Shown in pieces: positions 3,198-64,000 of a DNA stretch of 64,000 bases (within the stretch, counting starts at the first letter, position 1; each line of letters starts with the position of its first letter). The stretch comes from an uncultured delta proteobacterium (GTDB taxonomy: Bacteria; Desulfobacterota; Binatia; UBA9968): positions 23,062-87,061 of the forward strand of contig CAVUZH010000002.1 of assembly GCA_963745835.1 (NCBI GenBank), written 5' to 3'. Made by a program: the position numbers and the translations under genes. Below the pieces are notes generated by a model, which saw only the letters and a program-made list of their open reading frames with translations, had not been told where the DNA came from and did not search any database.

Positions 3198-3223
3198 CGA
3201 CCGTACGCGGCCGCATGAGCAGT

Positions 3224-3447: not shown

Positions 3448-3515
3448 TTCGTTGGACAAAAACCCGACTCCTACGATCGTCCCCACTCGCTTCCGATGAA
3501 ATTTGAAACGCATTG

Positions 3516-4379: not shown

Positions 4380-4382
4380 GGG

Positions 4383-5691: not shown

Positions 5692-5898
5692 ATAGCTCCC
5701 ACAGAACAGGTTCGATTAGAAGGATGGTATTTTTCAATCCGCTACGAGGTCGGGCATGAGTAATTCACTTATTGCGTCTGACTGACAGTTGCTGCATCGA
5801 GAATTGTTTCTCCGGCTTTCGGGGCTTATTCTTCCTCGATGTCGGAGTTTAGACATTTTGCGCCGGTGTTCCGATATCCTCACGGCCGGCCACAGGGC

Positions 5899-6417: not shown

Positions 6418-6628
6418 AGCCGTGACCCTCCGCGTTTGCCCCAAATGTACATTTGAGCGAGACCGCCTTCAAATGCCGCATAAGAATTTCGGAAACGGAG
6501 GTTCGCAAGGTCAGATGAGTTATTGACTCGGCTTTATCCAGTTTCTGCCTCTACAGCAAATTTTTTTTCTTTCTGTGGTGATTTCCGCGTTGATCTGGCA
6601 TAGCTGTGGAGATCGCGCTGCTCCCAAC

Positions 6629-7843
6629 ATGCCTCTCTCCCGCAACATAGTTCTGCTCCTCTGCGCCGGCGTTGTGACGATGACATCGATCGGCATGAAT
6701 TCGTTCAGCCTGTTTCTTAGACCCATCGAGGCGGAATTCGGCTGGTCGCGGACCATTGCCACGGTGCCGTACATGTTCGGCATGCTCGGCTGGGGAGTCG
6801 GCGGCGTCTTCTTTGGTAAACTGGCCGACGATCTGGGCGCCCGCCGGGTCATTCTTACCGGGATTCTTCTGATGGCGGCAGGTTTTTTCGGCATGGGCCT
6901 TTCGCAAAACTTGTGGCAACTGTCGCTCTCGTACGGGATTCTGGTCGGGCTGGCGAAGGGAGCGGCCGGACTCGTGATCATCTCCCTCCTGGTCGCCAAG
7001 CACTACCAGGCTAATCGTCGAGGGCTCGCTGTTAGTGTCATACAGACGGCCTCGCCGCTGAGCCCGGTGTTCTTTTCCCCGCTGCTTTACTTCTTGATCG
7101 AGAGGTTCGATTGGCGCGCTGCCGCTTTGGCCAGCGGTGTCTTGCTGTTGGCGGTGGCTTTTCCACTCGGCTGGTTCGGCGCGCGCGACCCGAATGATGT
7201 TGCGACCGCCCGGCGGGAGCGCGCAAGTTGGGCAAGCTGTCTTCCTTACCTGCGCGATCGTTCGATGATCTTGCTGTTCGCCGCGCGATTTTCCTGCGGC
7301 GTAGGTTTGTTTCAGACCGTGCATCTTGTGGCGATCGCGCTGAGCAAAGGTTTCGATGCCGCGACCGGAGCTTTCGCTGTCGGCGTTTTTGGCGCAGCGG
7401 CGGCGCTGTCGGCGCTGTTTTTTGGTTGGCTCTCGGACCGCTATGGCCGGGCGCAAGTGCTCGCTCTCACTTATCTCGTGCGCGGCTTGGGCACACTGGT
7501 ATTTGCCCTTGATATGCCCAACGAGCTTTTCTTCTACGCCGTTGTGGCACTCGCAATGGGGCCCACCTTCGGCACGATCGCGGTTCAGAATGTGATGTTC
7601 TACGAGATTGTCGGACCGAGGATGGCCGGAGTCATCCTGGGGATAAGTTTCATCGTCCACCAGATCGGCTCCGCCGGAGGTCCGATGCTGGCGAGCCTGG
7701 CCTTCGACATGACCGGCAGCTACGACGGGTTCATGATTATCATGGGCGTTATTCTCTTGCTCTCCGCGGCGCTTGTCTACAACACAGTTTCAGGGAAGCC
7801 GATCGCCGCAGCCGCTCCTAGCATGAGCGAAGCGCGCACGTGA
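6629..7843 (+). CDS. MFS transporter
   Basis: About 12 TM segments; motif A GKLADDLGARR and GWLSDRYGRAQ. Confidence 0.9.
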   Translation: MPLSRNIVLLLCAGVVTMTSIGMNSFSLFLRPIEAEFGWSRTIATVPYMFGMLGWGVGGVFFGKLADDLGARRVILTGILLMAAGFFGMGLSQNLWQLSLSYGILVGLAKGAAGLVIISLLVAKHYQANRRGLAVSVIQTASPLSPVFFSPLLYFLIERFDWRAAALASGVLLLAVAFPLGWFGARDPNDVATARRERASWASCLPYLRDRSMILLFAARFSCGVGLFQTVHLVAIALSKGFDAATGAFAVGVFGAAAALSALFFGWLSDRYGRAQVLALTYLVRGLGTLVFALDMPNELFFYAVVALAMGPTFGTIAVQNVMFYEIVGPRMAGVILGISFIVHQIGSAGGPMLASLAFDMTGSYDGFMIIMGVILLLSAALVYNTVSGKPIAAAAPSMSEART

Positions 7844-8177
7844 ACCGCCAAATCCAAGAGAGCGCGCAAAACAAGATTACGAATGTCGGCGGGGAATCCT
7901 GGGTGTGTGTGGATTCGTTAGGATAGACTTCAGAGTGCGCAAGCGTTTGCCGGACTAATACTGAGCAGGATAGAATCGGGGTACATATATTGTCCCGGAA
8001 TTTCCCCACCCGGTTAGCGCCCAGAGTTTAGAGTCCACAGTCGCAGTTGTCGGATCGACAAAGCACGCTGAACGGGTGGACCAAGAGTGGATCTGTGCGA
8101 TGCGCCTAGTTTGAGCCTTTGCGCAAGCCGGAGGTTTGCGAGATCGAGATCGCGCTGAGACTGCCGCGCGAGAATGC

Positions 8178-8879
8178 TCACCCAGCCATTCTGGACGGAT
8201 TTTTCCGAAAGTGATTTTTCACCTCCTCCAAGTGCATGACATCGGCATACTTGTGATGCAAATCGAACAGGTTGAGCTTGTGTGTTAGCAGACTTCGGTC
8301 AAAGCAGCATTCTTCCACGACCACGACGTGATAACCGTAGGAGTAGGCTTCTACCACCGAGGCGCGCACACATCCGCTCGTGCTCTCGCCGCAGACGATC
8401 AAGCTGTCGATCCCGAGGCGGGTGAGATTTGTAACCAGAGCGGTGCCGAAGAACGCGCTCGCCCGCTGCTTGTAGATTACCAGGTCGCCCGGCTGAGGCT
8501 TGAAGTCCTCGCGGATGTCGAAGGCTTCCTTTTCGCCCCGGAACTTGTGCTTAGTCGCATAGACTCCCGCCGGATTCACTTCGTCGCGCGTCTCGCTGGT
8601 CGTGTAGATCACGGGCAGGGGTTGGGCCCGCGCCAAGGCGATCAGTTCCTGGATCGGCTTGATCGCGTTGTGGGCGTAGAGGCCGCACGATTTCTTGTGC
8701 TCTTTCACAACCTCCTGCACGGGCGTCGGGCCGCCTTCGAAAACGAGGTTGTAAAGATCGATGGCGAGCAGGGCAGGATTTCGCCCGACGTGGGTTTCCC
8801 GGTTATAGGAGCTGTACACCTCGTGCATCTCCTCGTCCATCACATCCTTCCAGCAATGATCCTCGAATGTCTTGTTCAT
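8178..8879 (-). CDS. Isochorismatase-family cysteine hydrolase (N-carbamoylsarcosine amidase/maleamate amidohydrolase-like)
   Basis: Catalytic triad motifs AIDLYN, YKQRASAFFGT and GESTSGCVRAS. Confidence 0.9.
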   Translation of the reverse strand: MNKTFEDHCWKDVMDEEMHEVYSSYNRETHVGRNPALLAIDLYNLVFEGGPTPVQEVVKEHKKSCGLYAHNAIKPIQELIALARAQPLPVIYTTSETRDEVNPAGVYATKHKFRGEKEAFDIREDFKPQPGDLVIYKQRASAFFGTALVTNLTRLGIDSLIVCGESTSGCVRASVVEAYSYGYHVVVVEECCFDRSLLTHKLNLFDLHHKYADVMHLEEVKNHFRKNPSRMAG

Positions 8880-8897
8880 CGCGCTCGTCCTCCATTG

Positions 8898-9980
8898 TTA
8901 TTGGAGAAGCTTCTCCAGACGCTTGACCATCTGCGGCGAAGTTCCCATCACCTCGCGCGCCAAACGCTCCAATTCAACGCCGTTTTTCGGATTTACATCG
9001 AGGCTCAGTTTGCGCGCCTCCATGAGGAACTCGGGATCTTTCATCGTTTTCGAAAAAGAGTTCCGCAGAAGCTCCAGGCGATCCTCCGGTATTCCCGGTG
9101 GCGCTACAAACGGCCGGCCGAAATCCGGGGCTGCCAAGACCACGTTCATTAGCTCGAGGTCCTCTTTGCCGATCTGTTGTTTTTGCGCGACCTCCCAAAC
9201 CGTCGGCACATCCGGCAACGCGGCATCTCTTTGTCTGCCGCTATGAACCAGCACCCGAATGAAGCCGCTCTTGACCCATGTTTTCAACGGCTCTGCGCTG
9301 AGAAGCGTGGTTACGCTAATTGCACGGCAGACTGCCTCGCCCCTTTCGATGGCCAGGTTCATGGCTCCCGAACCTTGGTAACCCAACACCTGCTTGAACT
9401 TTGCCCCGAACACCTCGGTAAGAAGCCGGACGAACGCATAGTTTGACGATCCGGCGGCGCTGTCGGCGCATACCACGGGCTCCCGCGCCGCTTTGATGTC
9501 ATCCAAGCTGCGATAGCCGGAATCGCTTCGAACAAAAAGGCTGGTGACGTTAGGTTGGTCGGTGCCGATCCAGCTGAATTTCACCCAGTCGAATTTGATT
9601 TCCGGTTTGCCGAGAAGCTGCGCCTGATAGAGGCCCCCAGCGATCAGACCAACGGCGAGCCCATCGGGCTTGGCCACGCTGTAGATATAATTTGCCGCAA
9701 TCGCTCCAGCCGCGCCGGGCATATTCTGAACGACGACCTGCGGATTTCCGGGAATCTGTTTTGGCAGGTGACGAGCCACCAGCCTGGCCAGTAGATCGCT
9801 GCCGCCCCCAGCCGTTCCATAATCAACGATGCGAATGGTCTTGTCTTCGTAAAACGGACGGACTTGAGCCCGGGCGTCGCTGGTTTTCAAAATCCCCCAG
9901 ATGGCGACACAGCAGAGGGGTAGCATCCACTTGCGCGCTCCTTTGATTTTCGCCATGAGCGCTGGCTCCACATTTTCCAT
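8898..9980 (-). CDS. TTT (Bug/TctC) substrate-binding protein
   Basis: TAGGGSDLLAR, QNMPGAAG, AKPDG and GRPFVAPPG motifs. Exact start uncertain. Confidence 0.88.
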   Translation of the reverse strand: MENVEPALMAKIKGARKWMLPLCCVAIWGILKTSDARAQVRPFYEDKTIRIVDYGTAGGGSDLLARLVARHLPKQIPGNPQVVVQNMPGAAGAIAANYIYSVAKPDGLAVGLIAGGLYQAQLLGKPEIKFDWVKFSWIGTDQPNVTSLFVRSDSGYRSLDDIKAAREPVVCADSAAGSSNYAFVRLLTEVFGAKFKQVLGYQGSGAMNLAIERGEAVCRAISVTTLLSAEPLKTWVKSGFIRVLVHSGRQRDAALPDVPTVWEVAQKQQIGKEDLELMNVVLAAPDFGRPFVAPPGIPEDRLELLRNSFSKTMKDPEFLMEARKLSLDVNPKNGVELERLAREVMGTSPQMVKRLEKLLQ

Positions 9981-13213: not shown

Positions 13214-14601
13214 CATATTCTAGAAATACGCGAGCGACAGCGGCGCAAAGCCTTGCCCGGTTCATCTGTGATCTAAGCTATGCGCAGATTCCGGCCGACG
13301 CTGTGTGGCGCTGCCGGGAGCTATTGTTGGATCAATTGGGTTGCCAGCTGATCGGCGCCAGTGTGCCGTGGAATCAGCCGGTCTATCGATTTGTAAAAAG
13401 CGCGAAAGGCGGTGGCCCGGCCAAGATCGTGAAGTATGCCGATCAGGTGCCGACCGACGACGCGGTTCTCGTGAATGGAACCTTCGCCCAGGGTTGCGAG
13501 CTCGACGATTACTACGATCAGGGCGGCGGCCATCCCGGCGCGGCAACAGTGCCCGTGATTCTCGCGCTCGCGCAGCAGCAGACGGTCAGCGGGCAGGAGC
13601 TCATCACAGCTATGGTCGGCGGCTATGAAGTCGGCTGGCGCATCGGCCGCGCGCTCTTGCCGGAATTGATGACGCGCGGCTATCACGCGCAGAGCGTGGT
13701 GGGCGTTTTCATCGCCGCCGCCGCCGCAGGCAAAATTCTTCGCCTCGATCCGGAGCAGATGACTCACGCTCTGGCGATCGCCGGCAGCCATTCCGGCGGT
13801 ACCATGGAGTACGACCAGAGCGGCGGCGAAGTGAAACGGTTACACAACGGTATGGCCTGCTGCGGCGGGCTCCGCTCCGCGCTGCTGGCGCAGAACGGCC
13901 TCACCGGACCGCCGACGATCTTCGAAGGCGAGCGCGGCATTCTGAAAGTCATGTCGGGGACCAGCAATGTCGAGCCGATCGTCAAGAACCTCGACGCCGG
14001 CAATGAAGATCTCGCGCTCTATCATGCGGCGATGAAGCGTTTTCCGGTGAATGCCAGCCAGCACTCGCCGATCGAGCTGCTCGACAGTCTGGTCCGCGAG
14101 CACAACATCGACCCGCGCCAGGTTACGAAGATCATTGTCGAGCTCAATGAAGGAATCCTGCTGCACGGCGGCACCATCTATCAGCCCAAGGAAGTCATCG
14201 AAGCCCAATTCAGCCTACGCTTTTCTCTCGCGCTGAGATTCCTTAGAGGCAACAACGATCTGCAGCATTATCTCGACCCGGCCATGTGGAGCGATTCGGC
14301 GATGCTGGAGATCGGCAGGAAAATCGACCTGCTTGCCGACCCTACGGCAACCGGTCCGCGCCGTTTCGCTTGCCGGATGACCATTTTGCTTTCGGACGGA
14401 CGTGAAATGAGCGGTTCGTTGGCGGCGCCCAAGGGCAGTTATAAGAACCCTCTGGCTCCCGGCGAATTGCAGGACAAATTTTACCGGCTAGGCAGGACGG
14501 TTCTGGATGACGAAAGGCTCGGTTCGATCGTCGCTGCGGTGGAGCGGATTGAAAACGCGCCAAACGTCGCGGCGCTGAGCACGCTCATGACGGCGGCGTG
14601 A
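13210..14601 (+). CDS. MmgE/PrpD-family protein
   Basis: LDQLGC, ELDD..GHPG, KRLHNG, FEGERG, KRFP and AQFSL. ATGA overlap with iclR. Confidence 0.9.
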   Translation: MTYSRNTRATAAQSLARFICDLSYAQIPADAVWRCRELLLDQLGCQLIGASVPWNQPVYRFVKSAKGGGPAKIVKYADQVPTDDAVLVNGTFAQGCELDDYYDQGGGHPGAATVPVILALAQQQTVSGQELITAMVGGYEVGWRIGRALLPELMTRGYHAQSVVGVFIAAAAAGKILRLDPEQMTHALAIAGSHSGGTMEYDQSGGEVKRLHNGMACCGGLRSALLAQNGLTGPPTIFEGERGILKVMSGTSNVEPIVKNLDAGNEDLALYHAAMKRFPVNASQHSPIELLDSLVREHNIDPRQVTKIIVELNEGILLHGGTIYQPKEVIEAQFSLRFSLALRFLRGNNDLQHYLDPAMWSDSAMLEIGRKIDLLADPTATGPRRFACRMTILLSDGREMSGSLAAPKGSYKNPLAPGELQDKFYRLGRTVLDDERLGSIVAAVERIENAPNVAALSTLMTAA

Positions 14602-15677: not shown

Positions 15678-17030
15678 ATGGACGCGGTCGAAGAAAAATT
15701 GGTTCGCTTTGCCGACTCGTTCGCTTTTGCCGATATCGAAGCACCCGTCCTGCACGCCATCAAGCTTCGCTTCATCGATACGATCGGCTGCGCTCTGGCG
15801 GGCTACCACGAAGCGCCGGCGAAGATCGCGCGGCGCCTCGCCGCACAAGTGCGCAGCTCCGAGGAAGCCGGCGTGATCGGCGCCACCGTCAAAACTTCGG
15901 CGGAGATGGCGGCGTTCGCCAACACGACCATGATCCGCTGCCTCGACTTGAACGACGACTATTTCGGCAAGGACGGCCCCCACCCCAGCGATCTGATCGG
16001 TGCGGTGCTGCCGGCATCGGAGATCGCGCAGGGAAACGGCTCGTCGTTCGTCGCCGCCGTCGCGGCTGCGTATGAGGTTCTTTGCACTCTCGTCGACTCG
16101 GTCGGCATCCGTGAGCGCGGTTGGGATTACGTCACCTACACCGCATTGGCCGCGGCGCTCGGCTCCGGCAAGGCGATGGGACTATCGCAGAAATCGTTGC
16201 GCGATTCTTTGAGCCTGGCGGCGACGGCGAATTGTTCGTTGGGACAAACCCGACTGGGCGAGCTTTCGATGTGGAAAGGTATGGCGTCAGCCAATGCCTG
16301 TCGCAATGGCCTCTTCGCGGCTCTGCTCGCACGCGCCGGGGTAAGCGGGCCCTTTTTGCCCTTCGAAGGGAAGGGCGGTTTTCTTCGGCAGGTCTGCGGC
16401 TCTTTGGATCTCTCCCGCCTGGGCGCGACGCCTTTGCGCGCGGGAATCGTTTATCTGAAAAACTGGCCGGTCTTCTACAGCGCGCAGGGAGCCGTCGATG
16501 CAGCGATCGAGCTGCGCGAGAAAGTCAGACCTGACGAAATCAAAACTCTAGTCGTGGAATCCTATCAGCGCTTGATCGGGCGCGGCGCCACGGACCCGGA
16601 AAAATGGACGCCGCAATCACGCGAGACCGCCGATCACAGTGTGCCCTTCTGCGTAGCGGCAGCGCTGCTCGACGGCGGCGTGACGGCGCAAACCTTCGAT
16701 GCGGCGCGGTTTCTCGATCGAGACGCGATCGAGCTGATGGCGAAAATCACTTTGCGGGAAGATCCGGAGTTCACGAAACAATATCCGGAAAAGTGGAACT
16801 GCCGCGTCGTCGCCGAAACATTTTCCGGCGCGCGGCACGAAGTCCATGTCGCCTATCCGAAAGGACATCCGGAGAATCCATTCTCGGACGCCGAAGTCGA
16901 GGACAAGTTTCTGCGGCTGGCGGAGTCGTCTCTCGGAAGAAGTCGCTGTCAAAAGTTCATCGATTGGGCTTGGCGGCTGGAGCAAGCGGAAGAGATCCGT
17001 GAGCTCTTTCCGCTGCTGGCAATTTCATGA
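15678..17030 (+). CDS. MmgE/PrpD-family protein, closest in motifs to 2-methylcitrate dehydratase
   Basis: DLND..HPSD, LSMWKG, ETADHS and KGHPENP are typical of the PrpD clade. Confidence 0.88.
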   Translation: MDAVEEKLVRFADSFAFADIEAPVLHAIKLRFIDTIGCALAGYHEAPAKIARRLAAQVRSSEEAGVIGATVKTSAEMAAFANTTMIRCLDLNDDYFGKDGPHPSDLIGAVLPASEIAQGNGSSFVAAVAAAYEVLCTLVDSVGIRERGWDYVTYTALAAALGSGKAMGLSQKSLRDSLSLAATANCSLGQTRLGELSMWKGMASANACRNGLFAALLARAGVSGPFLPFEGKGGFLRQVCGSLDLSRLGATPLRAGIVYLKNWPVFYSAQGAVDAAIELREKVRPDEIKTLVVESYQRLIGRGATDPEKWTPQSRETADHSVPFCVAAALLDGGVTAQTFDAARFLDRDAIELMAKITLREDPEFTKQYPEKWNCRVVAETFSGARHEVHVAYPKGHPENPFSDAEVEDKFLRLAESSLGRSRCQKFIDWAWRLEQAEEIRELFPLLAIS

Positions 17031-19984: not shown

Positions 19985-21346
19985 ATGGCACGCGGCATTA
20001 CCGAACAATTGGCGATCCATACGGCGAAAGTGCGCTACGAAGACATTCCTCCCGAGGCAATCGAAAAAGCCAAAGATTGCATCCTCGATCAGATCGGGGT
20101 CGAGCTGATCGGTTCCACCCTGGAGTGGAATAAGATTGCCTACCGCTACGTCGCCGACATGGGAGGGCGCGGTGAAAGCACGGTGGTTAACTACGGCGAC
20201 AGAGTGCCGACTCTGGATGCGGCGTTCGTCAATGCAACCTTCGGTCAGGGCTGCGAGCTCGATGACGTCGGCTTTGCCGCGGGCGGCCACCCGAGCGCCG
20301 CTACCGTGCCGGTGGCGCTGGCCCTAGGTGAAAAGCAACGCAGCACGGGCAAAGATTTTCTCGCCGCCGTGGTCGTCGGCTGCGACGTCATGTACCGGCT
20401 GCTGGCGGCGGTTCGGCCTTCGTCGGGCAAGCGCGGGTTTCACAGCCACGGCATCGGCGCACCCTTCGGTGCGATGGCAACGGCAGCGAGACTGCTTGGA
20501 TTGAAAGAGGGGCAGATGCTGCATGCCTTCGGCATCGCCGGCATGCATTCGAGCGGCACCATGGAATACGATCAAACCGGCGGCGAGGTGAAGCGCGTGA
20601 TTGCCGGTGTCGGCGCGCGCAGCGGCATCCAGTCGGCGATGCTAGCCCAACTCGGGCTCACCGGTCCGCCGACCATCATCGAGGGCAAACGCGGGTTTCT
20701 TAAAGTCTTCGCCGATCTGGTGGAGCCAGAGGAAATCACCCGCGATCTCGGCAGTGAGTTCAAGATCATGCGCATCTGGTTCAAGCTTTATCCGTGCGTC
20801 GCCACCGTCCAGGGAGTGATCTACACGCTCAGCAAATTGATCGAAGAGCATCGCTTCGGGCCGGACGACGTCGAAGAAATCCGCGTCGGCATCTCCGAGA
20901 CTTCGCTGTCGCACGGCGGCGCGATTTACGAGCCGCACGATACTGCGAGCGCACAGTTCAGCCTGCCGTTCTCGTTGGCGATCCGCCTGTTGAAGAACGA
21001 CAACGATCTGAGCTTTTACATGGATCCCAAGCTGTGGACCGATCCGAAAGTTCTGGCGCTAGCCAAGAAAGTGAAGAGCTATGCCGACCCGAACGCGAAG
21101 AAGGACCAGAATTACAACACGACGATGGAAGTGAAGCTCACCAATGGCAAGAGTTACAAAGCGTTCGAGCCCTACCCCCCTGGCTCGCCGCTCAACATGG
21201 TCAGCCGTGACGTGTTGCGCGCCAAGTTTCGCAAGATGGCCCGCGCGGTATTACCCGAGAATCGGATCGACAGATTGATCGATGCCGTGGACCGGCTGGA
21301 AACCTGCAATGATACCGGCGAATTGCTCCCGCTGGTCGTGAAGTGA
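19985..21346 (+). CDS. MmgE/PrpD-family protein
   Basis: LDQIGV, GQGCELDD..GHPS, GTMEYDQTGGEVKR and AQFSLPF. Close paralog of 13210-14601. Confidence 0.9.
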   Translation: MARGITEQLAIHTAKVRYEDIPPEAIEKAKDCILDQIGVELIGSTLEWNKIAYRYVADMGGRGESTVVNYGDRVPTLDAAFVNATFGQGCELDDVGFAAGGHPSAATVPVALALGEKQRSTGKDFLAAVVVGCDVMYRLLAAVRPSSGKRGFHSHGIGAPFGAMATAARLLGLKEGQMLHAFGIAGMHSSGTMEYDQTGGEVKRVIAGVGARSGIQSAMLAQLGLTGPPTIIEGKRGFLKVFADLVEPEEITRDLGSEFKIMRIWFKLYPCVATVQGVIYTLSKLIEEHRFGPDDVEEIRVGISETSLSHGGAIYEPHDTASAQFSLPFSLAIRLLKNDNDLSFYMDPKLWTDPKVLALAKKVKSYADPNAKKDQNYNTTMEVKLTNGKSYKAFEPYPPGSPLNMVSRDVLRAKFRKMARAVLPENRIDRLIDAVDRLETCNDTGELLPLVVK

Positions 21347-55394: not shown

Positions 55395-57089
55395 ATGAGC
55401 TTCAATTCATCGACATACGTAAATTTCGTCTCCGCAGCGAGCGCCGCACAGGAGAGGCTTTTTTTGCAGTATCTGGGACATCGGTCCGACTTCGACATCA
55501 TTATCATCGGTTCGGGAATCGGCGGTGGCGTGCTGGGCGACGACCTTGCAGAGCGCCTGGGCAAGCACAAACGAATCCTGGTTTTGGAAGCCGGATCGTT
55601 TCTGTATCCAACCCACGTTTATAACGTTTGTCGTTTTCCGAACGCGAGTCTAGCCAAGCATTTCGGCTGCGGTACCTTCTGGCAGTCCGGGAACGAACAA
55701 TCACAAAACTATATCGGCGAGCAACCGCAACTCAATTTCGGTGGCCGTTCGATTTTCTGGTCCGGCCTGATCCCGTCGATTCAGGGATGGGAGCTCGAAT
55801 TCTTTCCTGATCGCGTAAGACAGGATCTGCAGAGCGGCCTACTTGCGAGAGCAGGCGAGACGATGAACGAATCGCGATCGATGGGGACGACGGCGCAGGC
55901 GATCGTCAGCAAGCTGCGGCAGAGTCCGTTGGCGCAGGACTTTTCGATTCAGGAGACGCCGCGTGCGCTGCACCAGCCTTATTTGACGTCGGAGGGCGTT
56001 CCCAGCGATCAATTTTTTACCGAACCGACCGGTGTATTTAACACCGCGGAGCTGCTCATCAACCAGGCGGGCCTGACTCCGGGTGTAAACCATGGCGATG
56101 GTCCGGGAGTCCAGCTTCTACTGAATCATTTCGTCGAGGATGTGCAGAATGCCGATGGTAATCGTTTCGAGCTTGTGACGCGCAATACCCTGACTGGCCA
56201 AATACGAAATTTCAATGCCGGCACAGTGGTGCTGGCCGGAGGCTCCATCGAGAGTCCGAAGCTGTTGCGCCGCTCGAGCCTATTTCCCTGGCTGCCTGAT
56301 GGCGTCAAAAGTCTGGTGGGGCGCGGTCTCACAGACCACCCGACCAGCAATGAGATTACCACGTTCGTGACTAACATCGGCAACGTGCCGATACCGAAAG
56401 ATTCGCATGCCAAGATTGTCTTCTACTCGCGCGGTTTACGCGATTCGCAGAACCAGATTCGGTATCCGTTTAATGTCGAGATGAACATCAACCACGAATA
56501 CTGGCATCTCCGCGAGAATGATCCGAAGGAGAGGGATTCAGGCGGTGCGATGCCCAACGCTAACAGCGGCGCCTCCAGAGTCGATATCAAGTTTAGCTTC
56601 GGCAACTGTCTCGATAACACCAACGAGGTTCTGCCGGCCCCTCCGTTCGGGTATGTGCCCCAAGTAAATTTCCGAAACTTGAAATGGATGGACCATCTGG
56701 CGCAATCGCGTTTTCCAGCGCTTGCGGGTTGGCAGAAAAGCTACGATGAAATTTTTGCCGTGCTCAATCAGGTGACGTACCAAATTTTCTCGCAATTTCA
56801 GCAGGACGGGCACGAAGCCCGGCCACTAAACGAGAGCTGGTATGGCATGGACGGCAAGGGTTTCGGGTGGGGCACGGTGCATCACGCGGCCGGTAGCCTC
56901 CGCATGCCGCACCGGACGAGGTATGACGGACCCATCGAGTCGCAATCAGTTGTGGACGAGAATTTACGCGTTGTCGGCACACAGCATCTTTATGTCTGCG
57001 ATATGTCGGTGATGCCGTTCAGTTCGGCAGCGAATCCGGTGCGAACACTGGTTGCGCTCGCTCTGCGGTTATCGACGCACTTTGGATAG
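55395..57089 (+). CDS. GMC-family FAD oxidoreductase
   Basis: GSGIGG, LEAG, GGRSIFWSG, ESPKLL, TDHP, HHAAGS, DMSVMP and ANP. Confidence 0.85.
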   Translation: MSFNSSTYVNFVSAASAAQERLFLQYLGHRSDFDIIIIGSGIGGGVLGDDLAERLGKHKRILVLEAGSFLYPTHVYNVCRFPNASLAKHFGCGTFWQSGNEQSQNYIGEQPQLNFGGRSIFWSGLIPSIQGWELEFFPDRVRQDLQSGLLARAGETMNESRSMGTTAQAIVSKLRQSPLAQDFSIQETPRALHQPYLTSEGVPSDQFFTEPTGVFNTAELLINQAGLTPGVNHGDGPGVQLLLNHFVEDVQNADGNRFELVTRNTLTGQIRNFNAGTVVLAGGSIESPKLLRRSSLFPWLPDGVKSLVGRGLTDHPTSNEITTFVTNIGNVPIPKDSHAKIVFYSRGLRDSQNQIRYPFNVEMNINHEYWHLRENDPKERDSGGAMPNANSGASRVDIKFSFGNCLDNTNEVLPAPPFGYVPQVNFRNLKWMDHLAQSRFPALAGWQKSYDEIFAVLNQVTYQIFSQFQQDGHEARPLNESWYGMDGKGFGWGTVHHAAGSLRMPHRTRYDGPIESQSVVDENLRVVGTQHLYVCDMSVMPFSSAANPVRTLVALALRLSTHFG

Positions 57090-57157
57090 TGAGTCTCACG
57101 TTAAGGTCTGGTGAGAATTCATCCTTATTGACATTGGTAAGGTGAATTGGATGAATA

Positions 57158-58204
57158 CTATGTTGCTAGCAATAGATATCGATGGTCGTCGCGACATAAC
57201 TTTGTGCCGAACGTGGAAGACAGCCGAGCGACGTTGTCCATAATTGCAGCTGATCCTGGTTGGTCAGGTCCTAATAAAGCAGGCTGCTCTTTTTCGTTGA
57301 GCGCGCTTGGAATGGCAGCGATTGTCGATATCTTATGATTGCGTAGCTCTGCCACGGCGACCAAACCATTTCGATATCCCCGAGCCGGTTTAAAATCTGA
57401 TCCGAAGATAAAATTACCCAAACTATAAAAGATCGGTTTCCCTTTGTAGATTTCCACGGCTTGGATAACGTGTGGGTGGCTTCCGACCACCAGATCGGCG
57501 CCGGCGTCGACAGCCGACCGTCCCAAGGTGGTCTGATACTGGCAGACTTCGTACTGACCCGAAACTCCCCAATGGAAATAGACGATCACGACGTCCACTT
57601 TTTTGCGGAGTTCGATGATGTCGTTCCTTACTTCTTGGAGCTGCTTTTCATCGGGATGGGTCAGGGTCGTCGCAGGCGCGCCGGGCATCTCAAAAAGTCG
57701 CCGATGGGGCTCATACGAAGTATAAACTTTCACACTCGCAACGCCCGCTTTGCTTTCAGTCGCCGCCTGTCCGACCGGCCAAAATACCGACGTATAGGAA
57801 AGCAGACCGAACGTTGTATCCTTCGCTCCGAATATCGCGGGGCGCCGCGCTTCCCTGACGTTCATCCCGGCGCCGGCATGTCCGATATTGTATTTCTCGA
57901 GTAAAGACAGAGACTGTTTTATTGCATCGTCTCCGAAATGAACGTTGTTGGCGCAAGCGGCGGCGTTGATTTTGAGTTCAGCGAGCACGTTAACAAAGTC
58001 TCGATTGCAATGGCGCCAACCCGGCTTATGCTGAAGCAACACGTCGGGATCGAAAAGACACCCTTCAAGATTGCAGATTTTCACATCGAAAGCGTCGAAA
58101 TCTTCCCTCACCAGATCCAGCACATTCGCTGGTTCGATTGGGCTGCCGAGATTGATGTCTCCCACTAATGCCAGCGACAAATCGCGCTGCGTGTCACTCG
58201 CCAT
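57158..58204 (-). CDS. CapA/PgsA-family metallophosphatase-fold protein
   Basis: VGDIN, NLEG, ANNVH, FHWG, GSHPHV and YSLGNF. Confidence 0.88.
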   Translation of the reverse strand: MASDTQRDLSLALVGDINLGSPIEPANVLDLVREDFDAFDVKICNLEGCLFDPDVLLQHKPGWRHCNRDFVNVLAELKINAAACANNVHFGDDAIKQSLSLLEKYNIGHAGAGMNVREARRPAIFGAKDTTFGLLSYTSVFWPVGQAATESKAGVASVKVYTSYEPHRRLFEMPGAPATTLTHPDEKQLQEVRNDIIELRKKVDVVIVYFHWGVSGQYEVCQYQTTLGRSAVDAGADLVVGSHPHVIQAVEIYKGKPIFYSLGNFIFGSDFKPARGYRNGLVAVAELRNHKISTIAAIPSALNEKEQPALLGPDQPGSAAIMDNVARLSSTFGTKLCRDDHRYLLLAT

Positions 58205-58293
58205 TTTTGCTCCTCGTTGGTACGTTTAACTTAGTGTCAAGCAAATGTCTATTTAGGTTGCCGCGGACGGAGTTGTCGCACTCCGCCGCTTCA

Positions 58294-58333
58294 TGTGAGC
58301 CGCTATTGTGAGCGCTCGGTTACTATTGTGAGC
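58294..58333. promoter_or_regulatory. Triple direct repeat TGTGAGC (two copies of CTATTGTGAGC, 20 bp apart), candidate operator
   Basis: Copies at 58294-58300, 58303-58313 and 58323-58333 in the divergent capA/mmgE intergenic region. Confidence 0.5.
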
Positions 58334-58419
58334 ACCCTGAAAATGGGATATGGGTTTTTTGCGTTTATCACTTGCCCGTCGATTCGATACCAGCATTTCA
58401 ATATAGAGGAGAGCGCTTC

Positions 58420-59799
58420 ATGAACGAGACGAGCGACCTAGCCAAATGGATGGTGGGGTTGAAATGGGTGGACATTCCCCGCGGAGTCATCGACTATTCG
58501 AAAATTCTTGTTCTCGATACCCTGGGCTGCATGTTAGGCGGATCGATTCAGGACAGTAATAAAGCTGCCCTTCGTTATACTCGCGCAATGGGCGGCTCGC
58601 CCGATTCAACGGTGGTCAATTATGGAGACCGAACCAACCCTTTTAACGCCGCCTTTATAAATGCTTCCTTCGGCCACGGTTGGGACTTCGACGACATGAT
58701 CAATGCCGGCGCGGGGCATGCCGTGAGCGCTTGTACGGCCGCGACGATGGCGTTGGCGGAAAAAGAAATTATTAGCGGGAGAGAGTTTCTCGAGGCTTGG
58801 ATCACGGGTTACGAAGTCTCCAATCGTGTCGGCGCCGCCACAAAGCCGGGGCACTTGAAACGGGGTTTTCACGAGGTCGGGACGATCGGTCCCTTTGCTG
58901 GAAGCGCTGCCGCAAGTAAAATCTTGCGGTTGAACGAATGGCAAAGCGAGAATGCAATTGGGATTACCGTGAGCCAGGCGGCCGGAACCTTCCAGCACAG
59001 CCAGACCACCGGCGGCGCGATCAAGAGGTGTCATGCCGGTTTTGCGGCGGCGAGCGGAGTTCGATCGGCGTTGTTAGCAAAGGAAGGAATGACGGCTGCA
59101 AGGGAAGCTCTTGAAGGCAAGAAGGGCTTTGTCTTGTGCCACGCCGGGGACGAGAATGACATGGACGCGATTACGCGAGACCTGGGTGAGGACTGGTATA
59201 CGACCAAAGCGGCTATGAAACCATACTCGTGTTGCGCGGGCCAGTACGGCATGCTCGACATTATCTATAAGATGAAGGGGAAATACGACCTCAAGCCGGA
59301 AAATATTGAAAGCATCAAGCTCTGGGGCAGCATCCGAAATCTGTGGATGGTAGGCACGATCAAAGGTGAAGAGGTCAAGGATATCTTCGGCGCGCAGTTC
59401 AGCGCCAGATTCGGCGTGGGTCTGGCGTTGGTCGTGGGAGAAAACCGGATCAAAGCTTATCACCAGAATATTCCGCCTTTTGGCAAATGGGCAGAAGTTG
59501 TCGAACTGGCTAAAAAAGTGGACGTGTACAACGACGACGAGATTCCGGAACGCGGCCCCATCTTCGGTTATGCGAAATGCGAAATCCAATTAAAAGACGG
59601 TCGCACGTTGAAGGGTGAGTCGGGATCGCCCATGGGTTTTCCGGGTAACCCGATGCAACGGGAAGAGCGTCTGGAAAAGTTTTACGGTCAGGCGTTGCTA
59701 GTCCAGACTAAAGAAAAGGCCGACAGGATTGTCGAACTGGTTGAGAATCTCGAAAACCTAGAGGATATCCGGCCGATCGTCAGAAATATGATTTGCTAG
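58420..59799 (+). CDS. MmgE/PrpD-family protein
   Basis: LDTLGC, DFDD..GH, RGFH, KRCHAG, LEGKKG, KPYSCC, AQFS and GFPGNPM. Confidence 0.9.
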   Translation: MNETSDLAKWMVGLKWVDIPRGVIDYSKILVLDTLGCMLGGSIQDSNKAALRYTRAMGGSPDSTVVNYGDRTNPFNAAFINASFGHGWDFDDMINAGAGHAVSACTAATMALAEKEIISGREFLEAWITGYEVSNRVGAATKPGHLKRGFHEVGTIGPFAGSAAASKILRLNEWQSENAIGITVSQAAGTFQHSQTTGGAIKRCHAGFAAASGVRSALLAKEGMTAAREALEGKKGFVLCHAGDENDMDAITRDLGEDWYTTKAAMKPYSCCAGQYGMLDIIYKMKGKYDLKPENIESIKLWGSIRNLWMVGTIKGEEVKDIFGAQFSARFGVGLALVVGENRIKAYHQNIPPFGKWAEVVELAKKVDVYNDDEIPERGPIFGYAKCEIQLKDGRTLKGESGSPMGFPGNPMQREERLEKFYGQALLVQTKEKADRIVELVENLENLEDIRPIVRNMIC

Positions 59800-59821
59800 A
59801 TTGGTTACGGTCGAGAGCGAC

Positions 59822-60763
59822 ATGAGCGAAGGATCCGAGTTCGATATTGTTATCATCGGCGGAGGAGTCGCTGGCCTTAGCGCTGCATTGTTCGCGGCGC
59901 GCTTCGGACATTCGACAATGGTCATTGAGCGCTTTGCGCCCGGCGGTCATTTGGTGAACGTCGAGAGCATCGAGGACTTTCCCGGGTTTCCGAACGGCGT
60001 GCCGGGGTATGAGCTCGGTCCACTAATGCAAGAGCAAGCCGCTAAATATGGTGCTGAGTTTCAAATGGCCGAGGTCGAAAGCATTGAGGCGGTGGAATCG
60101 TACTGGCAAGTGAACACCGCTGAAGGCATCTGTCGCGCCAAAGCGGTGATCGTCGCAACCGGGTCTCATCCAAAGGATCTGGGCGTGCCGCGTGAGAGCG
60201 CACTGCGTGGGCAAGGGGTTTCTAATTGCGCCAGTTGCGACGGACCTCTGTTTACCGATCAAGTGGTCGGAGTTGTCGGCGGAGGGAGTTACGCCCTGCA
60301 GGAAGCGTTAACCTTGGTAAACCACGCCTCTCAAGTGATCTTGTTTCACGATCAAAGAACGCTCTCCGCTCCGCAGACTCTCCAGCAAAGAGTGCTCAGC
60401 CATCCTAAAGTAGCCGCGCGCTACAATACGACGGTGGAAGAGATCCAGGGAGATGATGCAGTTACGGGTGCCGCGGTTCGCGATACCCTCACCGGAGAAA
60501 AATCTCAAGTTCAGCTCGCCGGGATGTTCATATATGCAGGCTTGGAGCCGAACACGGACTTTTTGAAAAACCTTCTGCGGTTGGATCACGATAATCGGGT
60601 GCCAACTGATGGCTGGATGCGGACTGAACTCCCGGGTCTGTTCGCGGCAGGAGATTTACGAACGGACTGCGCGGGGCTGGCGATTACCTCAGCTGGTGAT
60701 GGTGCAGCCGCGGCTATAGGAGCTCACGGATACCTCGAAGACCGGGTATGGAGACAAAAGTAG
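59822..60763 (+). CDS. Thioredoxin reductase-like flavoprotein with an atypical pyridine-nucleotide site
   Basis: GGGVAG, DFPGF, ATGS, GVSNCASCDG and GLFAAGD. It has GGGSYALQEA and HDQRTLS where GGGD/NxAxEEA and HRRxxxR are expected. Confidence 0.88.
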   Translation: MSEGSEFDIVIIGGGVAGLSAALFAARFGHSTMVIERFAPGGHLVNVESIEDFPGFPNGVPGYELGPLMQEQAAKYGAEFQMAEVESIEAVESYWQVNTAEGICRAKAVIVATGSHPKDLGVPRESALRGQGVSNCASCDGPLFTDQVVGVVGGGSYALQEALTLVNHASQVILFHDQRTLSAPQTLQQRVLSHPKVAARYNTTVEEIQGDDAVTGAAVRDTLTGEKSQVQLAGMFIYAGLEPNTDFLKNLLRLDHDNRVPTDGWMRTELPGLFAAGDLRTDCAGLAITSAGDGAAAAIGAHGYLEDRVWRQK

Positions 60764-60877
60764 CACCTGGGGACTGCGGAACGACGCACGATATCTCCAT
60801 GTAAATTTCGTCTAAAAATGAGATAGACGTATCATGCTTTTTAGCAGAGCGTATAAGAAAAGGGAGGGCAGCAACCT

Positions 60878-61453
60878 ATGAATGGCTTCATTGTATTAGA
60901 TCCTGTGGGTATTCCTCAGAAGGGTACCAGGAAGCCGCTGAAAGGCGTGGAAAATCTTGAGGGCAAGAGGATTGGTTTTATTTGGGGGATGCATGAGCTC
61001 TCAACTAAGTTTTGGCCAGTTTTAGAAGAGGAGATAGTCGGCGCGCTCAAGCCCCGCGAGGTTCACCGAGTGCACAAGAATGACAAAACTGATGGAAGAG
61101 CTAAGGGGAATACCTGGATCCCGGCGCCATTGCGAATAATCGAGGAAGCCGCATCAAAGGTCGACTATGCGGTTCTAGGTGTCGGGGCTTGAGGGTCCTG
61201 CACATCTGCCGCCGTGCGTGACACGGTAAATATGGTAAAGCTCGGGACTCCATCAGTTGTATTTGTCCACGAACCTTTCGAGAGACTCGCCAGAGCTCAG
61301 ATGAGGCAACTCGGAATAGAAGATTCAAAACCCTTTGTGATCGTCTATCCAGTCGATCGACCGTCCGCCGATTCCCAGGAGACAGTGCGTAAAAAAGCAA
61401 AAGAACAACTCCAGCGCATACCTGATTTGCTCAAGGTCCAACAGTGGCGGTGA
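60878..61453 (+). CDS. UGSC-family selenoprotein, 191 aa, Sec encoded by TGA 61190-61192 (codon 105)
   Basis: ORFs 60878-61192 and 61214-61453 are in frame with no other stop between them. Read-through gives KVDYAVLGVGA-U-GSCTSAAVRDTVNMVKLGTPSVVFVHEPF. The start at 60878 has RBS GGGAGG; the second fragment has none. Confidence 0.85.
61193..61225 (+). promoter_or_regulatory. Candidate bacterial SECIS hairpin
   Basis: Just 3' of the UGA: GTC(61195-97)-CT-GCAC(61200-03)-ATCTGCCGCC-GTGC(61214-17)-GT-GAC(61220-22). Confidence 0.5.
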
Positions 61454-61567
61454 CTGGTAACCGCTGTCGATGGCGACGAAGCTGCTCATGCGGTGAACGA
61501 ATTGGATCGACAGAGAGGCTTCATTGGTGCTCAGCGCATCGGGGTCGCGTGACAAAGGAGTAGAATC

Positions 61568-62662
61568 ATGAGCCTGCAAAATTACAAATTGACTTCGCAG
61601 CAGTACCAAGTCGAGGACGTCGATGCGTTCGCAGATCTGGCCTATGAGAAGGGCTGGACCGATGGTATGCCCGTGTTCCCTCCGACACTCAAGAAAGTGA
61701 CGGCGATCATCGACTATTTGAAACGGCCACCTGACGAGGCGCTCGGCATCGTTTCTCCTGGCGAAGGAGTCGCGACGATCGAGAAGATCGCAATCAATTG
61801 TGCGATGGCCGGCTGCAAGCCGGAATATGTTCCGGTGGTGCTTGCCGCTTTGGAAGCGATACTGGACCCGAATTTTCATATTTTGAGTGCCCAATGCAGT
61901 ACATTCGGTGGTCCTCCCCTGGCTATTATTAGCGGACCTGTGGTCAAGAAGCTTGGCTTTAATCATTCCGAGGGAGCCCTCGGTGGTTCGGGTCATCGGG
62001 TAAACGCCACCATTGGCCGCGCAATCCGCTTGATCCTGTGGAACATCGGTCAGGGCAAGCCGGGAGAACTTTCGAAAACCGTGTTCGGTGGACCGGCGCG
62101 CTGGCATTCATTGATCGCTGAACGGCCGAGAGAAGAAGGGAATCCCTGGGATGAGTTCCACGTCGATTACGCCGGGTTAGATGCTCAGGATAGCGCTGTG
62201 TCGATGCTAGGCGCCAATGGCAAGGTTGTATCGTGCGGCTTTGCAGCCTCATCGATCGACGATAACATCTCGACAATAGCAAACGACATCAAAGGAGACG
62301 GCGTAGCGGCCGCTCCCCATGTCTTCGTGCTCAATCCGCAGGGAGCTAGAATTTTAGCGGATGCGGGCTGGAGCAAGGAGCGTTTCCGGGACGCAGTTTA
62401 TGAGCAATGCTATGTTCAGGTGAGAGATATCAAAAAAGTAGCCAGCCAGGCTTCACCGACTAGTGTCTACTACTGGATGAAGAGGATCAGTCCGGACAAT
62501 GACGATGCGAAACTCTTTACCATCGCTGAGCCCAGCCATTTGAAAATCTTGGTGTCGGGAGGCTTTGGCGGCAGTCATGTGTGCTATCACTTCAGAGGCA
62601 GTACGCATTCGCTAACCGGCTCGGGCTTGGTTACAAAAAAGATCAACTGGAATTGGGACTAA
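61568..62662 (+). CDS. Conserved protein of unknown function of the type that accompanies or is fused to UGSC selenoproteins
   Basis: KGWTDGMPVFPPT, ATIEKIAINCAMAGCKPEY, GHRVNATIGRAIRL, AE..NPW and LADAGWSK; RBS AAGGAG. Confidence 0.8.
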   Translation: MSLQNYKLTSQQYQVEDVDAFADLAYEKGWTDGMPVFPPTLKKVTAIIDYLKRPPDEALGIVSPGEGVATIEKIAINCAMAGCKPEYVPVVLAALEAILDPNFHILSAQCSTFGGPPLAIISGPVVKKLGFNHSEGALGGSGHRVNATIGRAIRLILWNIGQGKPGELSKTVFGGPARWHSLIAERPREEGNPWDEFHVDYAGLDAQDSAVSMLGANGKVVSCGFAASSIDDNISTIANDIKGDGVAAAPHVFVLNPQGARILADAGWSKERFRDAVYEQCYVQVRDIKKVASQASPTSVYYWMKRISPDNDDAKLFTIAEPSHLKILVSGGFGGSHVCYHFRGSTHSLTGSGLVTKKINWNWD

Positions 62663-62717
62663 TGCAGAGAGCTTGAGTTACAGAAACAAAATCTTTATTG
62701 CATCGCAGGGGATTACA

Positions 62718-63776
62718 ATGAAAAAAGTTTCATTCTCAACGGCTTTGTGTTGTTGGGTCCTGTTCTCGGTATGCTTCCTTGGCTTTAATGCTTCCCTTCA
62801 CGCTCAAACAGACTCCTACTATAAAGGCAAAACTGTCACGATCGTAGTGGGCGTCTCTCCCGGTGGCGCCTATGATGTGTGGGCGCGGCTGATCGCGCCG
62901 CACCTAAGCAAACACATCCCCGGCAATCCGCAGGTCATCGTTCAAAATATGCCCGGCGCCGGGAGTCTAGTCGCCGCTAACTACGTTCACAACGTTGCCA
63001 AGCCTGACGGTTTGACCACGGTGATGCCGGCCAACCGATTGTATATCGATCAAATCGTCGGCCGCGCAGAGGTCAAGTACGATGTGCGAAAATTCGCATG
63101 GATCGGCAACCCGCAGAGATATTACACGGTGATCTATATGCGCGCCGATGCGCCATATAAGTCCATAGCGGACATCATCAGCGCGAAAGAACCACCCAAA
63201 TGCGGTGCGCCTGGGACAAACAGCGCCGGCTACACTCTTTCGCAACTCCTCGAAGAAGCTATAGGAGCCAAGTTCGAATTTGTGTTGGGGTATCCCGGCG
63301 CTAGTGAAATCGACTTGGCAGTTGAAAGAGGAGAAGTCATTTGCCGCGGTCACGATATCATCAATCACTTCAGTGGAAGCACGTACAGGGCTTGGCACGA
63401 AAGAGGGTTTGACCGCCACATCGTTCAAGACTCGCCCAAAAGAGACCCAAAACTGCCGGATACACCGACCATTTATGAGCTCATGGATAAATACAAAACA
63501 TCTCAGATCGCCCGCAATGTCACCGAGTTCATTTCAGCAAGCGCTGAGTTTGGCCGGCCGATGCTGACCTCGCCAGGAACTCCGGCGGACCGAGTAAAAA
63601 CTTTACGCGAAGCTTACGCGAAGACGATGCAAGATCCGGGATTTATTGCGCAGACGAATAAAGCAAAATTGGTATTGCAACCTTCTACCGGCGAAGAGCT
63701 ACAGGCATTGGTAGAACGGATCATGAACCAACCTCCGGAGGTCATTGAGCGCGTGAAGAAAATATTAAACGAATAG
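62718..63776 (+). CDS. TTT (Bug/TctC) substrate-binding protein
   Basis: SPGGAYDVWAR, QNMPGAGS, AKPDGLT, GYPG..AVERGE and FGRP. Confidence 0.9.
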   Translation: MKKVSFSTALCCWVLFSVCFLGFNASLHAQTDSYYKGKTVTIVVGVSPGGAYDVWARLIAPHLSKHIPGNPQVIVQNMPGAGSLVAANYVHNVAKPDGLTTVMPANRLYIDQIVGRAEVKYDVRKFAWIGNPQRYYTVIYMRADAPYKSIADIISAKEPPKCGAPGTNSAGYTLSQLLEEAIGAKFEFVLGYPGASEIDLAVERGEVICRGHDIINHFSGSTYRAWHERGFDRHIVQDSPKRDPKLPDTPTIYELMDKYKTSQIARNVTEFISASAEFGRPMLTSPGTPADRVKTLREAYAKTMQDPGFIAQTNKAKLVLQPSTGEELQALVERIMNQPPEVIERVKKILNE

Positions 63777-64000
63777 AGCTGCTGAATGATCGATTGGTTA
63801 TTTCCACTCCAGCCCAGCGCTGCGCCCTTATCGCGTAAATGCAATTCTACTTACGAAGGGGTCGGTTCTGTAGACGGTCTGCGCCCCGCCCTCATCCGGT
63901 TAGGGCGATGGTAAACGCAGCGGTGAAGATTGGATCCTAACGAATCGCAGCAAGCTGAAGCGGGCACTCCCGCTGGTTGCCTTCGCGCAAAATACCGTCA

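Follow-up and report, generated by a model that had tools for sequence, protein, structure and literature searches.

We analysed a 64,000-nucleotide stretch of DNA from an uncultured delta proteobacterium (Desulfobacterota; Binatia; UBA9968; contig CAVUZH010000002.1, positions 23,062 to 87,061), referred to below as the window, and concentrated on a block of five co-oriented genes close to its end. These encode an MmgE/PrpD-family enzyme, a thioredoxin reductase (TrxR)-like flavoprotein, a selenoprotein of the UGSC family, an unnamed partner protein and a periplasmic solute-binding protein of the TctC/tripartite tricarboxylate transporter (TTT) type. The reading that we favour, with a probability of about 0.55, is that the block forms an operon specific to one clade, with a widespread two-part selenoenzyme (UGSC and the partner) at its core, and that the adjacent TrxR-like flavoprotein supplies its electrons. 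An earlier note on the same DNA had joined all five genes into a selenium-dependent reductase pathway. The centre of that proposal, i.e. UGSC with its partner, a disulfide reductase and a kinship to glycine and proline reductases, is upheld by our analysis, whereas its edges, the MmgE/PrpD and TTT proteins, are not general parts of such a system.

The layout that had been described, with five co-oriented genes and the gaps between them, an in-frame TGA in the UGSC motif and a divergent CapA gene, was confirmed throughout by open reading frames and family scans (Table 1). The UGSC reading frame is open only if its TGA is read as selenocysteine (Sec). The Pfam model PF24696 spans this codon and scores well above its cut-off of 25 bits, which places the protein in the family. 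On NF041046 the protein reaches 70.5 bits, under the 125-bit equivalog cut-off, and it therefore belongs to a diverged subfamily (GVGA-U-GSCTSAAVRD). Among 96 UGSC matches at other loci, 79 have TGA at the same motif (78 UGSC, one UGTC) and one has a cysteine (CGSC); the motif of the remaining 16 was not parsed by the search pattern. The CGSC form is found in a haloarchaeal copy of the pair, in the Natrialba asiatica DSM 12278 record (L023, 5746-7382; L and C numbers are our handles for loci and contigs). The genome that contains the window, hereafter the source genome, encodes tRNA-Sec and has selA, selB and selD in one cluster (C22:65479-70161; L138, L139, L141). A stem-loop that follows the TGA, a candidate selenocysteine insertion sequence (SECIS)-like element, has a folding energy of -21.1 kcal/mol and a z of -1.83, which is marginal given that 9 of 200 shuffles were equally good; four other UGSC paralogs of the source genome have a clearer 8-bp hairpin about 14 nt past the UGA. 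On these sequence grounds we accept that the TGA encodes Sec, at position 105 of the protein. The selD gene of the source genome also has one in-frame TGA, i.e. it would encode a Sec-containing SelD.

The tie between UGSC and the partner protein carries most of the argument. Seven UGSC genes, each with one TGA, are present in the source genome, and in all seven cases a partner homolog lies directly downstream or is fused; on contigs C15 and C20, UGSC and partner form one reading frame with the motif variant USTC. For a wider view we scanned one genome per species with the partner alignment and assembled a diverse set of 80 loci, drawn from Dehalococcoidia and other Chloroflexota, Binatia, Methylomirabilota, Alpha-, Beta- and Deltaproteobacteria, Actinomycetota, Acidobacteriota and one haloarchaeon. 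UGSC adjoins the partner in 76 of these, in either order and often in tandem arrays. L026, L040, L045 and L075 are the four loci without UGSC; in two of them, L026 and L075, no more than about 40 nt separates the partner match from a contig end. We also drew an even sample of 121 genomes from the window's phylum. Both families occur in the same 14 of these genomes and neither occurs in the other 107, copy numbers nearly match, and every one of the 37 pairs found outside the source genome is adjacent. Fusion recurs as well: the partner is fused behind a UGSC domain in 14 of the 101 partner genes at the 80 loci, and a library profile search found a UGSC domain on 8 of 10 longer partner representatives. 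The pairs have multiplied within genomes, with seven diverged pairs in the source genome and up to 14-15 in another. Adjacency, fusions and phyletic co-occurrence bear out the suggestion, made from the window alone, that UGSC and its ‘unknown partner’ act together, and they support a genuine functional pair in which the partner is the obligate companion. As the two are fused into one chain in other lineages, they are most likely one enzyme, and gene fusion together with co-occurrence suggests that the separate proteins may bind each other.

The UGSC protein itself appears to be a small alpha/beta protein. U105, C108, G123 and F134 are invariant in 42 UGSC sequences. The AlphaFold2 (AF2) model (predicted local distance difference test score, pLDDT, 88.4) is a five-stranded alpha/beta/alpha sandwich in which Sec105 sits at the N-terminus of helix 106-121, directly after strand 97-103, with Cys108 one turn on. 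Fold searches returned generic matches (lumazine synthase, flavodoxin-like, FtsZ N-terminal, CheY-like and Rossmann-like) with Z up to 9.9, and no thioredoxin was among the matches listed; a sequence profile search of the PDB with UGSC found nothing. We read the model as a flavodoxin-like alpha/beta protein whose fold is not obviously that of thioredoxin.

Profile comparison linked the Sec segment of UGSC to selenoprotein B of glycine and D-proline reductases (GrdB/PrdB). With hhalign, UGSC scored 80.7% against three GrdB-like proteins of the source genome and 94.9% (E 4.3e-8), over 69 columns and with Sec on Sec, against 31 GrdB/PrdB-like Sec segments drawn from the source genome and the phylum sample. 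The controls scored 13% (TrxR alignment), 0.2% (partner) and 0.9% (reversed template). In the source genome, three GrdB-family genes read past a TGA into ‘...TST-U-GT[SC]...ELEKAG[IL]P’, which is locally the pattern that UGSC shows (‘...G-U-GSCTS...EK.G.P’). These alignments suggest that the Sec segment of UGSC is remotely homologous to selenoprotein B, and they give a sequence basis to the analogy with the selenoproteins of glycine and proline reductase. The source genome thus has three GrdE/GrdB pairs of canonical type, each with Sec, in which GrdE adjoins GrdB and not UGSC. After one of these clusters (C3:673743-676103), which is 9 kb away from a UGSC pair, come two MmgE/PrpD paralogs (677430-680288). 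Short PrdB-like proteins (L151-L175) are also encoded by many genomes of the phylum sample; their match to the GRDB model is confined to positions 200-345, and they read past a TGA into U-P-V-C, U-G-I-C or U-P-F-C, followed by ‘E.AGIPT’. From their sequences these look like a small selenoprotein family related to both PrdB and UGSC.

The partner belongs to a large family without a name. It has no Pfam or NCBIfam match, and none of 52 family members has a credible Pfam match (noise only, E at least 0.03); the library profile search counted 6991 representatives at E<=1e-3 and 2158 at E<=1e-30, as 50%-identity clusters. A literature search, in which supplements were not covered, turned up no publication that describes the partner, how it pairs with UGSC or a link to TrxR. 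In the partner, D32, T40, E72, N77, E86, T112, N146, R151, E185, W194 and H198 are invariant or nearly so, and these polar residues look like an active site. Cys83 is near-invariant (at least 90% of the 52 sequences) and is replaced by Ala in both fusion proteins of the source genome, so that an invariant Cys that could act as electron acceptor is missing from the partner. The partner is probably the substrate-binding subunit of the UGSC enzyme. Its AF2 model (pLDDT 89.3) gave as top Foldseek match 7xky_A, the alpha subunit of a class I (Fe-S) fumarate hydratase, with E 1.8e-5 and probability 0.99 at a TM-score of only 0.26-0.30; VIA-align gave Z 4.8 and a root-mean-square deviation of 5.4 over 195 residues, and we treat this similarity between models and structures as a lead only. 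A VIA-align scan of the PDB reached a best Z of 6.1 on 83 residues and no fold relative was assigned, a PDB sequence profile search returned nothing below E 0.4, and a search of the ESM Atlas returned unnamed clusters only. Cyclic amide hydrolases were considered as fold relatives and rejected (Foldseek E about 1e-3, TM under 0.2).

Partner genes also occur in other arrangements. Six proteins of about 710-740 aa (P0122, P0125, P0128, P0129, P0144 and P0201) have two partner-like stretches in tandem. The search for longer proteins returned four of about 715 aa, and the one scanned, P0122, has no Pfam domain; by sequence, these look like tandem double partners. Two metagenome contigs (L124 and L125, positions 730-9065) hold an array of five partner paralogs with only two UGSC genes, which suggests that some partners may share a UGSC subunit.

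We turned to the source of electrons. The TrxR-like protein matches TIGR01292, the model of low-molecular-weight thioredoxin reductases, over its full length and stays under the equivalog cut-off (307.8 against 343.45 bits). Its CxxC (CASC) is invariant in an eight-sequence alignment, and the protein also has the glycine motifs for binding FAD and NAD(P)H (GGGVAG and GGGSYA). The motif HRRxxxR, which binds the phosphate of NADPH, is missing: the window protein reads FHDQRTLSA. The TrxR-like copies beside UGSC read HDQ, QRE, LQE and HQTE, and the C13 copy, which is not beside a pair, reads HRRDALRA. Lacking this motif, the TrxR-like protein probably uses NADH, or another donor. Of the five TrxR-like paralogs in the source genome, four have a pair no more than 2.4 kb away; chance would give about 0.06, judging by how much of the genome falls within 5 kb of a UGSC/partner pair. 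At the diverse loci, redox domains are found on the partner itself. An N-terminal extension with a CxxC is present on 17 of the 101 partner genes; of five such extensions scanned, one was over the AhpC-TSA cut-off, two had sub-threshold thioredoxin-fold matches and two had none. Among the 10 longer partner representatives, one carries AhpC/Redoxin and two carry the catalytic chain of ferredoxin-thioredoxin reductase (FTR; PF02943), at the N-terminus in one and at the C-terminus in the other. All the domains found fused to the partner are thiol, selenol or disulfide redox modules, which suggests a dithiol relay that re-reduces a Sec105-Cys108 selenenyl-sulfide. We read the upstream reductase as interchangeable and the TrxR-like gene as the version of this lineage. 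The proposal of a disulfide-reductase electron supply is backed twice over, by the pair-linked paralogs and by the thioredoxin-fold and FTR fusions elsewhere.

To ask how far the five genes belong together, we examined a set of close relatives, 32 metagenome contigs on which the partner has 79% identity or more, and counted each gene where the contig reaches its position. The TTT gene is present in 24 of 25, UGSC in 23 of 25, the TrxR-like gene in 19 of 21 (63-77% identity), the MmgE/PrpD gene in 15 of 15 and CapA in 12 of 12 (58-76% identity), so that the arrangement goes beyond chance. In L117, a relative at 79% identity, the upstream place of the TrxR-like gene is taken by a TTT gene. Flanks vary by subgroup, with the GMC oxidoreductase found only in the two nearest relatives (L015 and L096) and with different downstream genes; that the block is kept while its flanks differ keeps a clade-specific operon plausible. 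In the window the genes are separated by 22 (or 1), 114, 114 and 55 (or 10) nt, the alternatives being those of the TTG starts, and the outer junctions are the tight ones. Four soil RNA libraries yielded contigs at 95-99% identity that cover the five genes. The PrpD/TrxR junction is bridged in three runs, and so is the partner/TTT junction; among the contigs listed, none bridges the TrxR/UGSC or the UGSC/partner gap with at least 31 letters on both sides, which says nothing either way. Taken as sequence evidence, the five genes are likely an operon in this clade.

Family comparisons gave the MmgE/PrpD protein a place outside PrpD itself. It is not a PrpD equivalog (42.7 against 950 bits on NF042438, 18 against 458 on TIGR02330), and its closest solved relatives are iminodisuccinate epimerase (2hp0/2hp3, E 4e-33) and IRG1/cis-aconitate decarboxylase (7bra, 6e-32). 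In the TTT protein a hydrophobic N-terminal stretch is visible in the translation. Elsewhere in the window tblastn found further paralogs of these families, two TTT and three MmgE/PrpD, at 2184-3185 (+), 8901-9917 (-), 13252-14568 (+), 15699-17006 (+) and 20000-21313 (+).

Several observations weigh against the reading of the block as an operon around a two-part selenoenzyme with its own reductase, or narrow it. The TrxR-like gene lies within 6-8 kb of a pair in only 5 of the 80 diverse loci and for 2 of the 37 phylum pairs, one of the two being weak (a 27%-identical flavoprotein 3.8 kb off); with the gene this rare elsewhere, a dedicated reductase is not a general feature. An MmgE/PrpD gene is near the pair in 4 of the 80 loci and for 2 of the 37 pairs, and 1 of 16 MmgE/PrpD paralogs in the source genome is within 5 kb of one; for TTT the corresponding figures are 8 of 80, 1 of 37 and 2 of at least 88. 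Outside one clade, both families stand near the pair at about background frequency, i.e. about what chance gives. Over the whole source genome, MmgE/PrpD genes occupy 16 places and full-length TTT genes at least 88, an abundance that we take for a Bug-like expansion. Conservation among the close relatives may partly reflect short divergence time, and RNA-library contigs can contain DNA, the comparison having been made without a silent control stretch. The similarity to GrdB/PrdB is local, over 61-69 columns only; the Pfam GRDB model (PF07355) has no match in the 42 UGSC sequences at E<=1, and hhalign scored the partner at 0.1% against five GrdE-like (GrdE/PrdA) proteins of the source genome and at 1% against the N-terminal part of GrdB. 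Fold searches with the partner reached Z 6.1 at most, which makes its role as substrate binder a guess.

A neighbourhood survey of UGSC homologs had been recommended in the earlier note. It returned the partner as a recurrent neighbour and did not return the TrxR-like, MmgE/PrpD or TTT genes as such, and the five-gene set is confined to one clade; at background frequency elsewhere, MmgE/PrpD and TTT drop out as parts of a general pathway. The varied neighbours at the 80 loci include CoA-transferase III (9 loci), thiamine pyrophosphate (TPP) enzymes (9), TctC (8), enoyl-CoA hydratase (6) and short-chain dehydrogenases/reductases (SDR; 6), counts that are lower bounds owing to crude gene calling, together with amidases and several binding-protein families. 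CapA is within 8 kb of a pair in 3 of the 80. The flanks of other pairs in the source genome (C17:1-20000, L008; C3:306000-326000, L009; C15, L011) hold mostly orphan periplasmic binding proteins, NMT1/THI5-like and SBP_bac_6, and also Tannase/feruloyl-esterase, CoA-transferase III, DUF6282 and amidohydrolase genes.

From the observed pairing, fusions, Sec reading, remote GrdB/PrdB similarity and clade synteny we infer a possible chemistry, electron path and substrate. UGSC and the partner would act as a single enzyme, with the substrate bound by the larger of the two proteins. The selenolate would attack the bound substrate, Cys108 would then resolve the adduct to leave a selenenyl-sulfide, and a dithiol/disulfide relay would re-reduce this bond. 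In this organism the relay would start from the adjacent TrxR-like flavoprotein, directly or via cellular thioredoxin, and the electron donor would probably be NADH, not NADPH. The co-organised MmgE/PrpD and TTT genes, in this clade only, suggest as a hypothesis that the substrate is an imported organic acid. We tentatively extend this to a wider proposal, possible but well short of even odds, in which UGSC and the partner represent a new class of selenium-dependent reductive-cleavage enzymes. Members of such a class would attack the carbon next to a carboxylate with Sec and resolve the adduct with Cys, using a substrate subunit of unknown fold in place of a pyruvoyl proprotein. Their paralogs would have diversified in soil and aquatic heterotrophs for the breakdown of substituted organic acids, and interchangeable relays would feed them, either a dedicated TrxR-like flavoprotein that probably uses NADH, as in the window, or a thioredoxin fold or FTR catalytic domain carried as a fusion.

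The full pathway of the earlier note asks more of the outer genes. There, a polycarboxylate taken up by the TTT protein is isomerised or dehydrated by the MmgE/PrpD enzyme and then reduced or reductively cleaved by UGSC and the partner, and the flavoprotein re-reduces UGSC directly, without thioredoxin. The tight outer junctions (1-22 and 10-55 nt), the block conserved among close relatives while flanks change and the RNA-library contigs across the PrpD/TrxR and partner/TTT junctions all fit this. So do a second locus of the source genome, on C20, where a UGSC::partner fusion is followed by TrxR-like and TTT genes, two loci (L042 and L054) with MmgE/PrpD directly after a UGSC::partner fusion, and the FTR-catalytic fusions to the partner, in which the enzyme itself carries a reductase module. 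Against it stands the background frequency of MmgE/PrpD and TTT near the pair outside the clade; with 16 and at least 88 paralogs in the genome, adjacency is cheap. The nearest subfamily in other phyla (L016-L020, about 40% identity) is also without the three accessory genes, bar a weak TTT match in L017. We consider the five-gene pathway rather unlikely.

Two further explanations keep the selenoprotein and change its task. UGSC and its partner might serve general thiol/selenol redox or detoxification, as a peroxide, sulfoxide or metalloid reductase or in protein-disulfide repair, with catabolic genes nearby by chance. A UxxC at a helix N-terminus, together with AhpC/Redoxin-like thioredoxin-fold fusions, would suit an antioxidant-type enzyme, and neighbourhoods are heterogeneous across the 80 loci. 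Seven diverged pairs, and up to 14-15 elsewhere, nevertheless fit a substrate-diversified catabolic family better than housekeeping repair, the remote similarity is to the substrate-cleaving selenoprotein B and not to peroxiredoxins, and the modelled UGSC fold looks flavodoxin-like and not obviously thioredoxin-like, all of which make such a role improbable. Still harder to credit is that catalysis belongs to the partner, and that UGSC, as a selenium counterpart of thioredoxin or GrdA dedicated to it, merely shuttles electrons and has no share in the substrate chemistry. In favour of this, UGSC has a length of only 191 aa and a fold of the generic flavodoxin/CheY-like kind, several lineages have a thioredoxin-fold or FTR domain on the partner besides a separate UGSC, which would make a three-step relay ending at the partner, and the partner has its near-invariant Cys83. 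That residue is Ala in two fusions of the source genome, however, which leaves no invariant Cys to accept electrons, and the GrdB/PrdB segment that UGSC matches is the catalytic Sec site. The reading of a clade-specific operon around a two-part selenoenzyme accommodates these points best in our judgement.

Table 1. Positions of the five-gene block and associated features in the window, and of GrdE/GrdB-like clusters elsewhere in the source genome
Feature	Position	Strand	Match or remark
GMC-family oxidoreductase gene, upstream of CapA	55395-57089		outside conserved block
Divergent PGA_cap/CapA-family gene, 348 aa	57158-58204	-	PF09587, 183 bits
Direct repeat of TATTGTGAGC, two copies 20 nt apart, between the divergent CapA and PrpD genes	58304-58333	+	possible operator
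MmgE/PrpD-family enzyme, 459 aa	58420-59799	+	PF03972, 198 bits; PF19305, 69 bits
TrxR-like flavoprotein, 313 aa from ATG	59822-60763 (alternative TTG start 59801)	+	PF07992, 140 bits; TIGR01292, 307.8 bits
UGSC selenoprotein, 191 aa	60878-61453	+	PF24696, 94.7 bits, residues 6-185
In-frame TGA (U105), motif GVGA-U-GSC	61190-61192	+	
Candidate SECIS-like stem-loop after TGA	61193-61250 (inner hairpin 61207-61237)	+	weak support
Unnamed partner protein, 364 aa	61568-62662	+	no Pfam or NCBIfam match
TctC/TTT periplasmic solute-binding protein	62718-63776 (alternative TTG start 62673)	+	PF03401, 56.3 bits (cut-off 27)
GrdE/PrdA-like (PF09338) and GrdB-like (PF07355) clusters	source genome C3: 673743-676103, 759875-762388, 1194803-1203229		L143-L145, L176-L180

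Signals around the block were few. The repeat TATTGTGAGC between CapA and the MmgE/PrpD gene is not above chance, with three copies in the window at up to one mismatch against a shuffle mean of 2.75. An Rfam search of 57000-64000 gave no match. The promoter scan gave no promoter-like site on the + strand and the terminator scan gave three + strand matches, all outside the gaps of the five genes; both scans were uninformative. The contig ends 224 nt past the TTT gene.

UGSC has been described as an abundant selenoprotein of unknown function (PMC2398784, PMC1976440, PMC9312934, PMC13188914), and reviews up to 2026, in the portions available, still call it uncharacterised. Hyphomonas neptunium, a cultured organism, is listed among its carriers (PMC1976440). 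An obligate partner and disulfide-reductase modules turn this orphan into a defined, testable enzyme system. The window adds a case of a separate, dedicated TrxR-like reductase gene, and its compact block with candidate substrate-handling genes offers concrete proteins for reconstitution; the Cys form in a cultured haloarchaeon (Natrialba asiatica) allows work without Sec insertion. What we add here are the altered cofactor motif of the TrxR-like paralogs and the statistics of their placement in the genome, the fusions with FTR domains, a profile match to selenoprotein B that was tested against controls, perfect phyletic co-occurrence of UGSC and partner, and a likely clade-level operon with candidate substrate-handling genes.

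Each protein of the block can be set beside a known system. The window gene shares with the ‘UGSC-containing protein’ of Zhang and Gladyshev (PF24696/NF041046) the UGSC motif with Sec and Pfam membership. The available part of the 2008 account (PMC2398784) mentions a fusion of UGSC to a domain ‘Unknown_1’ and guesses a thioredoxin-like fold, whereas the window protein is modelled as flavodoxin/CheY-like. The MmgE/PrpD enzyme has both Pfam domains of a superfamily that includes iminodisuccinate epimerase, IRG1 and 2-methylcitrate dehydratase; it differs from the last in not being a PrpD equivalog and in being one of 16 paralogs in its genome. Like the two-subunit form of class I (Fe-S) fumarate hydratase, which acts on dicarboxylates, the UGSC enzyme would have two subunits, but the partner is without an invariant Cys set for a cluster. 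The TrxR-like protein resembles TrxB (TIGR01292) in its full-length match, Rossmann motifs and redox-active CxxC, and departs from it in having HDQ in place of HRRxxxR, in adjoining a selenoprotein gene instead of a thioredoxin gene and in being one of four pair-linked paralogs.

The closest parallel lies with the glycine, sarcosine and betaine reductases and D-proline reductase, which likewise rest on a two-gene unit of a larger subunit and a selenoprotein. UGSC shares with GrdB/F/H and PrdB (PF07355) a U-x-x-C after a beta-strand, then a helix, then an ‘E-K-x-G-I-P-T-V’ strand. It differs from GrdB in its size of about 190 aa, without the GRDB domain of about 340 residues; the partner is unrelated to GrdE/PrdA (PF09338), with nothing pointing to a pyruvoyl group, and the block has no equivalents of GrdA, GrdC or GrdD. 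Clostridial grd operons carry trxB and trxA beside the reductase genes, much as the TrxR-like gene stands beside UGSC and its partner here.

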